Sequence record: OR845836.1
Length of the DNA stretch: 1,568 nucleotides
Strand: one strand, 5' to 3'
Origin: Escherichia phage ECO95 1-6-1
Each line of letters opens with the position of its first letter. Within the stretch, counting starts at the first letter, position 1. Both the position numbers and the translations under genes were made by a program. Of the stretch, positions 1 to 1,568 are shown piece after piece. The notes below the pieces were generated by a model. It worked only from the letters and a program-made list of their open reading frames with translations, searched no databases and was not told the DNA's origin.

Positions 1-1
1 G

Positions 2-145
2 GTGGCGCTTTACTTCGTACCGGATATCCATCCGCTTGCGCTTGCCGGCATTGGTTCAGCGTTGGGGATTCTTGGCCTTAATGGTGTTGAAGCCTGGCTA
101 CGTAAGAAAGGGATCGGTTTTCTGGGGAAGGGGGCTGACAAATGA
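2..145 (+). CDS. 3' end of a holin-like small membrane protein (5'-truncated by the window edge)
   Basis: Frame 2 is open from the window start to TGA at 143-145 and translates to ...VALYFVPDIHPLALAGIGSALGILGLNGVEAWLRKKGIGFLGKGADK*. This is one hydrophobic, Gly/Ala-rich transmembrane-like segment followed by a short Lys/Arg-rich tail, the usual holin C-terminal pattern. Its stop overlaps the endolysin start (ATGA at 142-145), the usual holin-endolysin coupling. No start codon in the window, so it is missing from the ORF track. Function is inferred from position and topology, not from a recognised motif. Confidence 0.45.
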   Translation: MALYFVPDIHPLALAGIGSALGILGLNGVEAWLRKKGIGFLGKGADK

Positions 146-483
146 CACTGAGTGAAAAACAGCAGCTGTTTACCGTTATGGTGGCAAATCTGATCCACTG
201 GGCAGAAGAACACGGCTACCGGCTGACGTTCGGGGAGGCGTACCGCACGCCGGAACAGGCGGCGCTGAACGCGAAAAAGGGCAGCGGTATTACCAACAGT
301 CTGCATACACGGCGTCTGGCAGTGGATTTTAACCTGTTTGTTAACGGCCAGTACCAGACCCGCACAGAGGATTACCTGCCGCTGGGCGAATACTGGGAGT
401 CACTGGGCGGCAGCTGGGGCGGGCGCTTCAAATCCAGGCCGGACGGCAATCATTTCAGTCTGGAACATGACGGGGTTCGCTGA
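142..483 (+). CDS. Endolysin, peptidase M15 / LAS-family zinc peptidase (VanY or L-alanyl-D-glutamate peptidase-like), 113 aa
   Basis: ORF 142..483. The product contains SLHTRRLAVD (His-x6-Asp) and a C-terminal DGNHFSLEH His cluster, the arrangement of zinc ligands expected in small M15 phage endolysins. A G-rich Shine-Dalgarno (GGGGG about 130-134) lies about 7 nt upstream of the ATG. There is no N-terminal signal or SAR-like hydrophobic segment. It sits between a holin-like ORF and a spanin pair. Confidence 0.85.
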   Translation: MTLSEKQQLFTVMVANLIHWAEEHGYRLTFGEAYRTPEQAALNAKKGSGITNSLHTRRLAVDFNLFVNGQYQTRTEDYLPLGEYWESLGGSWGGRFKSRPDGNHFSLEHDGVR

Positions 484-815
484 TGGATCGTGTGGTGGCG
501 GGCTGGCTTGTGACGGTTGTTCTGGCCTTCTGGGCAGGCTGGAAGGCGGCTAACTGGCAGCGTGACAGTATCGATCTGGCCATCAGCCGGTCAGCCAGCG
601 CTACCGGGGAAACGCTGGCGAGCATGGCCAGTGAATCCGGGCGAAAACTGGAAGAACAACTGGAGGCTTTGAAAAATGCACCGCCGCGTGAAATTCGTAC
701 GGAGGTGGTTAAGCCGGTGTTTACTAACGTGTGCCTGTCTGACGACTTTGTCCGCATGTACAACGACGCCGCCGCCAGTACCGAACGTGCGTTATCAGGA
801 AAACCTGAAAACTAA
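483..815 (+). CDS. i-spanin (Rz-like / P2 LysB-like inner-membrane spanin subunit), 110 aa
   Basis: ORF 483..815; its ATG overlaps the endolysin stop (TGATG at 481-485). It has an N-terminal hydrophobic segment (VVAGWLVTVVLAFWAGW) consistent with a type II signal-anchor, then a charged, Ala/Glu/Leu-rich region (GRKLEEQLEALKNAPPREIRTE) consistent with a periplasmic coiled coil. It contains an embedded +1-frame lipoprotein ORF, the diagnostic spanin arrangement. Confidence 0.8.
   Translation: MDRVVAGWLVTVVLAFWAGWKAANWQRDSIDLAISRSASATGETLASMASESGRKLEEQLEALKNAPPREIRTEVVKPVFTNVCLSDDFVRMYNDAAASTERALSGKPEN
662..666 (+). promoter_or_regulatory. Shine-Dalgarno (GGAGG) for the internal o-spanin start
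   Basis: GGAGG at 662-666 lies 9 nt upstream of ATG 676-678, inside the i-spanin coding sequence. A strong RBS placed inside another gene supports real translation of the +1-frame ORF. Confidence 0.55.
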
Positions 816-975
816 ATGCGTCACGCAGCTGCCACGCCTGAAAGGGACTACGGGTAAAGATGCTGCGGAACTGTTGAATGCGTATCTTGAAATTTATGGT
901 CAGTGCGCAGCACGCCATAATCAGTTAATAGATGAAATTAATCGTAGAGAGAGTCTTTTATATGGAAAAAATTAA
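676..975 (+). CDS. o-spanin (Rz1-like / P2 LysC-like outer-membrane lipoprotein), overlapped architecture, 99 aa precursor
   Basis: ORF 676..975 is in the +1 frame relative to the i-spanin. It starts inside the i-spanin gene and runs 160 nt past its stop (TAA 813-815). The N-terminus MHRRVKFVRRWLSRCLLTCACLTTLSAC has a basic n-region, a hydrophobic stretch and a lipobox-like L-S-A-C (Cys28). The predicted mature N-terminus CTTTPPPVPN is Pro/Thr-rich, as is typical of Rz1-type o-spanins. The start codon choice and exact lipobox are uncertain. Confidence 0.7.
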   Translation: MHRRVKFVRRWLSRCLLTCACLTTLSACTTTPPPVPNVRYQENLKTKCVTQLPRLKGTTGKDAAELLNAYLEIYGQCAARHNQLIDEINRRESLLYGKN

Positions 976-1219
976 ACTGTGTGTCTGTGGGACTGATATT
1001 ATTTTTGAACCAAATCAGACCGCCTATAATAAGTTTATTAATGAAATGGCAATGGACAATAAAGTGGCACCTGCGCATAACTACCTGACGCGTATTGTTG
1101 CAACGGAAAGCAAGGAAGCTTTAGCTGAAATATTAAAACGTCCGGGCGCTGCGCTTCAGCTTGTCAGTAAGGTTAATGATATTTACGCCCCTGAACTGGA
1201 AATTGTAGTAAAAAACTGA
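962..1219 (+). CDS. Tail assembly chaperone, short form (lambda G / P2 E analogue)
   Basis: Frame 2 ORF ends at TGA 1217-1219. The ORF track starts it at ATG 932, but ATG 962 (MEKIKL...) is preferred because a purine-rich GAGAGAG (about 947-953) precedes it, while 932 has no SD. It lies immediately upstream of the probable tape measure gene and ends in a slippery heptamer that opens a -1-frame extension, the defining arrangement of tail assembly chaperone genes. No sequence motif was recognised; the call is from context and the recoding signal. Confidence 0.65.
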   Translation: MEKIKLCVCGTDIIFEPNQTAYNKFINEMAMDNKVAPAHNYLTRIVATESKEALAEILKRPGAALQLVSKVNDIYAPELEIVVKN

Positions 1220-1410
1220 CAAAGCGAGTCCGGGCAATTGAACAGAACGGACTCGAACAATATTTAATACTTCGCCGTCATTATTTACCACATGGTCAGG
1301 ATTCCGTTGACGATATTGCTGCGGCTATCTGGCTGGATAACCGTCACTGGGAATATACAGGAATTGCTGTGGCCAATGGTGTGGCTAAAGCATTTAAAGG
1401 CACAGAATGA
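962..1410 (+). CDS. Tail assembly chaperone, long form made by programmed -1 ribosomal frameshift (lambda GT / P2 E+E' analogue); shift at 1210-1216
   Basis: After slipping -1 on A_AAA_AAC (1210-1216), translation continues in frame 1 from CTG 1216 for 64 codons (LTKRVRAIEQNGLEQYLILRRHYLPHGQDSVDDIAAAIWLDNRHWEYTGIAVANGVAKAFKGTE) to TGA 1408-1410. This frame is open from 1195 and contains no ATG or GTG, so it cannot be initiated independently. Its stop overlaps the tape measure ATG (ATGA at 1407-1410). The fusion would be about 149 aa from ATG 962. Confidence 0.6.
1210..1216 (+). other. Slippery heptamer A_AAA_AAC (X_XXY_YYZ) for -1 programmed frameshifting, immediately followed by the 0-frame stop TGA 1217-1219
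   Basis: Read directly: ...GTA AAA AAC TGA in the chaperone frame. The heptamer fits the X_XXY_YYZ rule, and A_AAA_AAC is an established shifty sequence (for example the astrovirus ORF1a/1b site). Confidence 0.7.
1225..1255 (+). other. Predicted frameshift-stimulating stem-loop (8-bp perfect stem, 15-nt loop), 8 nt downstream of the slippery site
   Basis: CGAGTCCG (1225-1232) is the exact reverse complement of CGGACTCG (1248-1255), with loop GGCAATTGAACAGAA (1233-1247). The 8-nt spacing from the heptamer is within the usual 5-9 nt for -1 frameshift stimulators. There is no following T-run, so it is not an intrinsic terminator. Confidence 0.55.
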
Positions 1411-1568
1411 AACAGTTAGATTTTACATTAAGCCTGATTGATAAGTTGTCCCGCCCGTTAAAACAGGCACAGAGCAGCGTCACCGGCTTTGCGGAAAAAT
1501 CAAAAGCGGCCTTTATGCAGATTGGCGGTGGTGTGCTGGCTTTAGCGGGTACAGGAATGGCCATACGG
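1407..1568 (+). CDS. 5' end of a probable tail tape measure protein (3'-truncated by the window edge)
   Basis: ATG 1407-1409 is preceded by AAGG about 6 nt upstream and overlaps the frameshift-product stop (ATGA). The frame is open to the window end: MKQLDFTLSLIDKLSRPLKQAQSSVTGFAEKSKAAFMQIGGGVLALAGTGMAIR... The gene directly following a G/GT-type frameshifted chaperone pair is almost always the tape measure gene. Only 54 codons are visible, so the call is from synteny. Confidence 0.55.
   Translation, partial: MKQLDFTLSLIDKLSRPLKQAQSSVTGFAEKSKAAFMQIGGGVLALAGTGMAIR

Follow-up and report, generated by a model that had tools for sequence, protein, structure and literature searches.

Gene content of the locus

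The 1568-nucleotide (nt) stretch of DNA analyzed here (hereinafter, the window), from the sequence record OR845836.1 of Escherichia phage ECO95 1-6-1, encompasses a phage lysis cassette that is packed against a tail assembly chaperone gene and the beginning of a tape measure gene. Coordinates refer to the window unless another record or locus is named, all features of the window are on the plus strand, and the open reading frames (ORFs) and junctions were read from the sequence and its translations. Six ORFs, complete or partial, lie in the window, together with a seventh coding region in the −1 frame. The initial annotation of this DNA, made from the sequence alone, viewed the contact between lysis and tail genes as an atypical module junction; its ORF positions and all four junction strings are confirmed, and searches of each protein against Pfam and phrog profiles agree with every gene identity that it proposed.

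The window opens with the 3′ end of a holin gene (2-145), that is, the last 47 codons and the stop codon of a gene for a 97-amino acid (aa) class I holin, which is complete in GenBank record OR850894.1 (locus L002; 2233-2526). The holin belongs to the Phage_holin_3_2 family (PF04550; 2.4e-40 for the full gene and 1.3e-12 for the window fragment) and to phrog_175 (holin, 5.5e-37). The next gene (142-483) encodes a 113-aa endolysin, a zinc peptidase of the M15 family (PF13539, Peptidase_M15_4, 4.9e-11; phrog_1768, endolysin, 2.3e-16), the Escherichia coli orthologue of which carries the name ‘M15 family metallopeptidase' assigned by the Prokaryotic Genome Annotation Pipeline (PGAP). The residues H55-x6-D62 and D101-x-x-H104, located by eye, probably form the M15 metal and catalytic motif; no signal or signal-arrest-release-like segment is evident by eye at the N-terminus. 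A PDB sequence search with the endolysin yielded a single match, to a yersiniabactin synthetase carrier domain, which is weak and spurious and was not used. As in a holin-endolysin system, a gene for a small multi-pass membrane protein (PF04550) lies directly 5′ of the gene for a muralytic enzyme (PF13539).

The two spanin genes have the overlapped architecture of the P2 LysB/LysC type, in which the gene for the outer membrane spanin (o-spanin) begins inside that for the inner membrane spanin (i-spanin) and extends beyond its end. The i-spanin (483-815; Rz/LysB-like, 110 aa; phrog_1152, Rz-like spanin, 3.6e-40) has an N-terminal membrane anchor, with residues 4-20 hydrophobic in the translation. 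The o-spanin gene (676-975), in the +1 frame and preceded by GGAGG 9 nt 5′ of its ATG at 676, encodes an Rz1/LysC-like lipoprotein with a 99-aa precursor (PF23793, LysC, 1.9e-7; phrog_2425, 8.6e-31; phrog_456, spanin, 5.4e-8), in which the lipobox L-S-A-C, with Cys28, is followed by Thr, so that there is no Asp at position +2.

The 85-aa tail assembly chaperone (962-1219) matches Phage_TAC_10 (PF10963, 1.4e-36) over profile positions 1-82, starting from residue 4. The window ends within the tape measure gene (1407-1568, the first 54 codons), which in full, at 3788-5755 of OR850894.1, encodes 655 aa and matches PF10145 (PhageMin_Tail, 2.8e-23) and phrog_28 (tape measure, 8.1e-106).

A fixed slot for the lysis cassette

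The gene order was compared across 179 loci, each encoding a chaperone relative, that were collected from 28 species genomes, 140 viral contigs, reference phages, an E. coli prophage and six Salmonella contigs. The viral contigs come from three seeded scans: the alignment-based scan gave only close relatives, and scans seeded with the chaperones of phages HP1 and K139 were added. The loci are from Haemophilus, Vibrio, Aeromonas, Morganella, Serratia, Ewingella and many Enterobacteriaceae, with chaperones that are 36-90% identical.

The lysis cassette fills the 1.0-1.6 kb between the tube gene and the chaperone gene in 170 of the 171 loci with enough upstream sequence, and the chaperone gene directly precedes the tape measure gene in all 179. 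The content of the slot varies: the cassette is of the M15 type, as in the window, in 111 of the 170 loci, of the HP1 type in 47, of the K139 type in 10, and of other content in two loci from Aeromonas. Within the HP1 branch of Peduoviridae, the succession of sheath, tube, holin, endolysin, spanins, chaperone and tape measure is invariant, and this layout is already known; recognition of an HP1-like group dates from 2009 (PMC2771037). The designation of the junction as atypical is thus wrong for this lineage, with the order being shared with HP1, K139, Escherichia phage ESSI2_ev239 and the surveyed loci, whereas the first of the two explanations that the initial annotation offered, a gene order found in some P2-like phages, is correct.

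The sole exception, a prophage of Citrobacter sp. FP75 (L022, 5235-6440), has only the holin in the slot, with a 334-nt gap and without an endolysin or spanins. Its chaperone gene ends with AAAGAAA in place of AAAAAAC; the −1 extension is still open and is 52% identical to that of the window. In several loci (L006, L008, L009, L014, L015 and L017, at ∼4880-5520), the holin is 44-54% identical to that of the window and the neighboring endolysin 85-95% identical, a disparity that points to exchange of the holin gene within an otherwise conserved cassette. One of these loci, L006, is a 20-kb contig labeled ‘MAG: Bacillota bacterium' (JAEWTL010000126.1) that carries an enterobacterial prophage module, with the chaperone 92% and the endolysin 95% identical to those of the window, and is probably mis-binned. 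Disrupted copies also occur: the endolysin gene of L058 (3884-4084) is 5′-truncated, with no upstream tube gene, the chaperone and tube genes are interrupted in Enterobacter sp. EA-1 (L033, 6001-6260), and two HP1-type contigs (L139 and L145, 5255-5440) have the −1 extension interrupted after 44 codons.

Overlapping junctions and probable co-expression

The genes of the window overlap at four junctions. The endolysin start overlaps the holin stop (ATGA, 142-145), the endolysin and i-spanin genes share 1 nt (TGATG, 481-485), the chaperone starts 14 nt inside the o-spanin ORF (ATG at 962, o-spanin stop at 973-975), and the stop of the −1 frame extension of the chaperone overlaps the tape measure start (ATGA, 1407-1410). 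At the last of these junctions, the initial annotation placed the TGA (1408-1410) correctly, but this codon ends the extension and not the 85-aa chaperone ORF, which stops at 1217-1219.

Among 96 distinct M15-type loci related to the window, the 14-nt overlap between the o-spanin and chaperone genes is present in 75 of the 78 loci where it could be determined, and the 1-nt overlap between the endolysin and i-spanin genes in 43 of 43. The holin and endolysin genes overlap by 4 nt in 55 loci and by 14 nt in 28, with no overlap in 10; of 95 loci, 83 have a 4-nt and 10 a 1-nt overlap between the extension and the tape measure gene. The overlaps are conserved and are not accidental.

This head-to-tail packing, with starts and stops overlapping, makes a single late mRNA with partly coupled translation the most likely mode of expression. 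Consensus scans detected no promoter- or terminator-like sites on the plus strand inside the window, which is weak negative evidence, and the K139 record annotates a single putative operon that extends from the scaffold gene through the last tail gene. Taken with the overlaps, these observations render plausible the single co-translated late transcript that was proposed from the junctions at the outset.

The surrounding prophage

The window is 100% identical to part of OR850894.1, a 6344-nt record labeled ‘UNVERIFIED_ORG: Salmonella phage S.Kent 1-2-1', sequenced at ∼4.7x coverage from a preparation of lytic phage that had been propagated on S. Kentucky. This record is a fragment of an HP1-like prophage resident in the Salmonella host or a relative, rather than of the phage that was being sequenced. 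The same 1568 nt are also found in a Salmonella chromosome (CP194313.1; L034) and in a 25-kb IMG/VR contig (2667527921_000008; L040), and the assembly collection has 6935 indexed blocks that contain the exact i-spanin protein, which indicates that the element is very common.

The initial annotation noted that a tail tube gene normally precedes the chaperone. The tube gene is not missing but is located just to the left of the window: in OR850894.1, it occupies 1768-2223, matches Phage_HP1_Orf24 (PF10772, 1.1e-63) and ends 9 nt 5′ of the holin start. Further 5′ in the same record are a DUF2586 sheath gene (PF10758, 8.8e-139) and a tail completion gene, and on the 3′ side, the 655-aa tape measure is followed by a DUF2590 protein (PF10761, 7.9e-45).

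The chromosomal copy in CP194313.1 provides the rest of the late region. Upstream, the order is Ogr_Delta, portal (PF04860), large terminase (Terminase_6), GPO scaffold (PF05929), P2-family capsid (PF05125), small terminase (PF05944), gpL, gpR, an S-like gene, the DUF2586 sheath and the HP1_Orf24 tube, with the head and packaging genes in the Q-P/O-N-M order and orientation of the P2 family. After the tube come the holin, M15 endolysin, spanins, TAC_10 chaperone, DUF6890, tape measure, DUF2590, Baseplate_J, fibre, fibre chaperone and HP1_ORF34 (PF25759), so that the tail module, with PF10758, PF10772, PF10963, PF10761 and PF25759, is of the HP1 rather than the P2 type. The IMG/VR contig extends in the other direction and encodes a gpA replication endonuclease (PF05840, GPA, 1.2e-105), a Dam methylase, CII (PF06892), CI (Phage_CI_repr and CI_C) and a tyrosine integrase (Int_N and Phage_integrase). 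Together with the Ogr/Delta activator, these genes comprise the lysogeny and replication module. Given that identical DNA resides in elements with head, packaging, replication and lysogeny genes, the window element is a complete temperate phage and not a tail-only particle. The flanks are those of an ordinary complete prophage with a commonly observed gene order, an outcome that the initial annotation itself had named as refuting its reading. Infectious myovirus particles are known only from relatives (ESSI-2 and the ESSI2_ev phages; PMC6969025).

A relative in E. coli (L003), 83% identical over the window, is a prophage located between mntS and mntR that has the same full set of genes. At its right end, between the tail genes and mntR (31524-33383), there are genes for a PIN-domain protein, a STAS-like protein and an ATP-binding protein, and a P-loop NTPase gene adjoins the integrase gene; the latter, together with the right-end genes, might be defence or accessory cargo.

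A −1 frame extension of the chaperone

The −1 frame opens a few codons before the chaperone stop codon and spans 1216-1410 (64 codons and the stop), a ‘T' or E′ part that matches DUF6890 (PF21830, 3e-24). The ORF list of the window contains no ATG, GTG or TTG start in this frame that would give at least 20 codons. Exactly where the frame opens, a slippery heptamer, A_AAA_AAC (1210-1216), spans the last two sense codons of the chaperone gene in the correct phase for −1 slippage. The identical heptamer directly precedes the chaperone stop in 177 of the 179 loci, including HP1 and K139, the chaperones of which are 44% and 36% identical, respectively, to that of the window. The extension is 49-95% identical across the relatives, HP1 and K139 included, and is more conserved than the chaperone in the comparison with HP1 (52% vs 44% identity); its stop overlaps the tape measure ATG in 93 of 95 distinct relatives. 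Since the extensions of both the window element and HP1 match PF21830, and the heptamer is combined with an open frame that has no start, DUF6890 is, on sequence grounds, the −1 frameshift extension of the HP1-type chaperone, that is, the ‘T' part and the positional counterpart of P2 E′ (PF06528). Besides the window, the extension was located at 21490-21669 in HP1 (L004) and at 21273-21416 in the E. coli prophage L003. A literature search found no mention of the name DUF6890.

The heptamer is followed, after 8 nt, by a stem-loop (1225-1255) that is a candidate stimulator of frameshifting, with CGAGUCCG (1225-1232) pairing with CGGACUCG (1248-1255). The minimum free energy of the hairpin is −18.7 kcal/mol (z = −2.4 against shuffled sequences), and, of 40 distinct enterobacterial sequences, 39 retain the 8-base pair (bp) stem. 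One stem pair alternates among these 40 sequences between A-U (21), G-C (18) and G-U (1), and is never unpaired; a second pair shows one double change from G-C to A-U (L082), with the amino acid replacements Val to Ile and Leu to Phe; and the remaining changes in the stem are all wobble-compatible. The covariation score exceeds those of all 500 shuffles and all slid controls. This pattern is suggestive of a frameshift stimulator, in sequences that are related and in a region that also codes for protein. In E. coli, ribosomes have been reported to shift much less readily on A_AAA_AAC than on A_AAA_AAG (PMC5009743), which makes a stimulatory structure plausible, and the combination of a conserved heptamer and a hairpin provides a clean natural system in which A_AAA_AAC frameshifting in enterobacteria could be tested.

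In relatives from Ewingella and Rahnella (L021, L023, L024 and L025, at ∼6245-6275), the enterobacterial hairpin is absent, and a GC-rich structure, GGCGCG-GGUU-CGCGCC, is found ∼5 nt beyond the heptamer, which is unchanged. In the HP1 clade, a 13-bp hairpin is located at a greater distance 3′ of the heptamer.

Proposed function and alternative explanations

It appears highly probable that the window is part of a complete temperate myovirus, integrated in Salmonella enterica, that belongs to the HP1 branch of the P2 family (Peduoviridae; ESSI-2/Evevirus-like), and that it covers the central part of the late region with the structural and lysis genes, with the lysis cassette in its fixed slot between the tube and chaperone genes. 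The late mRNA would be activated by the Ogr/Delta-type factor of the phage. The holin would permeabilise the inner membrane at a programmed time, the M15 peptidase would cut the peptidoglycan cross-links, and the spanin pair would fuse the inner and outer membranes. On the chaperone message, most ribosomes would stop at 1217-1219, yielding the 85-aa chaperone, and a minority would slip back by one base on A_AAA_AAC, probably aided by the hairpin, and read to 1410, yielding a fusion protein of ∼149 aa. If lambda G/GT and P2 E/E+E′ serve as a guide, both forms of the chaperone would coat the tape measure protein, and the extension would recruit the tube protein, such that the tail tube polymerises to the measured length.

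One alternative, raised in outline by the initial annotation, is a tailocin: the locus would be a tail-only bacteriocin of domesticated origin, like the R and F pyocins, in which the genes for head, packaging, integration and replication have been lost. Tailocin clusters place lysis genes beside tail genes and, within the 1568 nt of the window alone, the lysis genes directly touch the tail genes. However, the element with identical DNA encodes a portal, large and small terminases, scaffold, P2-family capsid and head completion proteins along with the replication protein A, CI, CII and the integrase, and close relatives have been isolated as plaque-forming temperate phages (PMC6969025). With the flanks complete and the relatives forming plaques, a tailocin is excluded for practical purposes. 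More recent shuffling, whereby a rearrangement or insertion moved the lysis cassette between the tube and chaperone genes of the window element and made it an atypical mosaic, would accord with the exchangeability of the cassette content, given that M15-, HP1- and K139-type cassettes occupy the same slot, that diverged holins adjoin conserved endolysins, that the slot of the Citrobacter prophage contains the holin only, and that Pseudoalteromonas ACA phages have been reported to lack a lysis module (PMC10612066). The slot itself is, nevertheless, ancient and fixed, being shared by phages of Haemophilus, Vibrio, the Pasteurella group, Aeromonas and enterobacteria with chaperones that are only 36-60% identical, and the tube gene directly adjoins the chaperone gene in none of the 171 scorable loci. 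Considering also the retention of the 14-nt overlap at the o-spanin/chaperone junction and the thousands of assembly blocks with the exact i-spanin, a recent rearrangement seems very unlikely.

A further alternative concerns the extension itself, which could be an independent small gene, with the chaperone produced in one form only. Indeed, gene callers, PGAP included, list the extension in relatives as a separate ‘DUF6890 family protein' of 27-64 aa. Such a gene would have no start codon in a frame that is, nevertheless, open for 64 codons and conserved, and the canonical −1 heptamer coincides with the opening of that frame in 177 of 179 loci; moreover, P2 has the same arrangement, annotated as a −1 frameshift. 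An independent gene is, accordingly, highly improbable.

Several observations weigh against the assignment of the window to the HP1-branch late block and against the mechanism outlined above. The surveyed loci are not phylogenetically independent, with many of the prophages being near-identical. A BLASTP comparison of the chaperone and extension of the window with P2 E and E′ gave no alignment, so that, with no detectable homology, the equivalence to P2 E/E+E′ is drawn from gene position, architecture and the names of the Pfam families. The P2-type activator motif TGT-N12-ACA has eight matches against 4.6 expected, which is not significant, one of the matches is the slippery site, and the late promoters were not located. 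What is shown for the window element is the identity, order, overlap and conservation of its genes and the completeness of the prophage; transcription as one unit, translational coupling, the frameshift product and the efficiency of its formation, and a role of the hairpin are inferences.

The position of the cassette within the late block of this HP1-like prophage may itself be functional rather than neutral, in that coupling to the lysis genes and the RNA stimulator could set the synthesis of the chaperone and its frameshifted form. This possibility is prompted by the chaperone start inside the o-spanin ORF in nearly all enterobacterial relatives and by the weakly shifty A_AAA_AAC with its covarying hairpin, and we regard it as rather unlikely; if it were true, the stoichiometry of tail length control would be tied to the expression of the lysis cassette. 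For genome annotation, the practical consequences of the HP1-branch assignment are that a lysis cassette located beside the chaperone and tape measure genes in prophages of the P2/HP1 family should not be flagged as a sign of rearrangement or of a tailocin, and that the DUF6890 ORFs called in thousands of enterobacterial genomes should be annotated as joined coding sequences with the chaperone.

Comparison with known systems

Among the closest known systems are Cronobacter phage ESSI-2 and Escherichia phages ESSI2_ev239, ev129, ev015 and ev040 (Peduoviridae, Evevirus and relatives), which are 78-82% identical at the nucleotide level over most or all of the window and have complete temperate myovirus genomes of 29-31 kb with the same M15-type cassette and overlaps; ESSI2_ev239, at 80% identity and with a 29-kb genome, has the same gene order. 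The window element differs from these phages in representing a different species-level lineage, with a Salmonella host, and in the holin and spanins being more diverged than the tail genes. Phages of the ESSI-2-like group, ESSI2_ev239 among them, have been isolated as plaque formers, and ESSI-2-like prophages were found in 43 of 459 Salmonella genomes (PMC6969025).

Haemophilus phage HP1 (NC_001697), with orf23 (sheath), orf24 (tube), hol, lys, orf25 (spanin), orf26 (chaperone; PF10963, 1.6e-39) and orf27, and Vibrio phage K139 (orf24-orf31) have the gene order of the window element. The HP1 orf27 product, annotated as hypothetical, aligns with the tape measure of the window element at 32% identity. 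Shared by all three are the tube (PF10772), the chaperone (PF10963), its extension (PF21830) and A_AAA_AAC at the chaperone stop. Instead of the M15 cassette, HP1 and K139 have a lysozyme-type endolysin of ∼190 aa and unrelated holins, with an additional zinc-finger ORF before the holin in K139 only; unlike in the window, the extension stop in both does not overlap the tape measure start, and the protein identities are 36-60%.

P2 resembles the window element in having the lysis cassette, Y-K-lysA-lysB-lysC, among the tail genes of a late operon, with lysB and lysC overlapped. In P2 (L180), the last 38 nt of the o-spanin gene lysC (8202-8492) also belong to the tail gene R (8455-8922), which implies that o-spanin genes extending into a tail gene characterize the family as a whole and not only the HP1 branch. 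In the P2 record, experimental annotation likewise gives the chaperone E a −1 frameshift extension, which terminates where the tape measure gene T begins, and E+E′ is marked as essential. The differences are that the P2 cassette, which includes the antiholin-like gene lysA and the lysozyme K, lies between X and R/S, and that the tube gene FII directly precedes E. The families also differ, with P2 E and E′ belonging to Phage_TAC_7 and PF06528 (Phage_P2_GpE), respectively, as opposed to TAC_10 and DUF6890 in the window.

Clusters of the R- and F-type pyocins share with the window the placement of lysis genes beside tail genes; they are devoid of head, packaging, integration and replication genes, all of which are present in the window element. 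In lambda, as in the window, a short chaperone gene (gpG/gpGT) lies just before the tape measure gene and is subject to −1 frameshifting near its 3′ end. The chaperone of the window would, by analogy, be the functional counterpart of lambda gpG and P2 gpE, from a sequence family different from that of P2 E. The −1 frameshift in lambda occurs at a low level, both the G and the GT forms have been demonstrated and shown to be required for tail assembly, and the GT extension is thought to bind the tube protein (PMC5009743). Lambda differs in being a siphovirus and in its slippery sequence, G_GGA_AAG, in place of which the window has A_AAA_AAC followed by a conserved hairpin.

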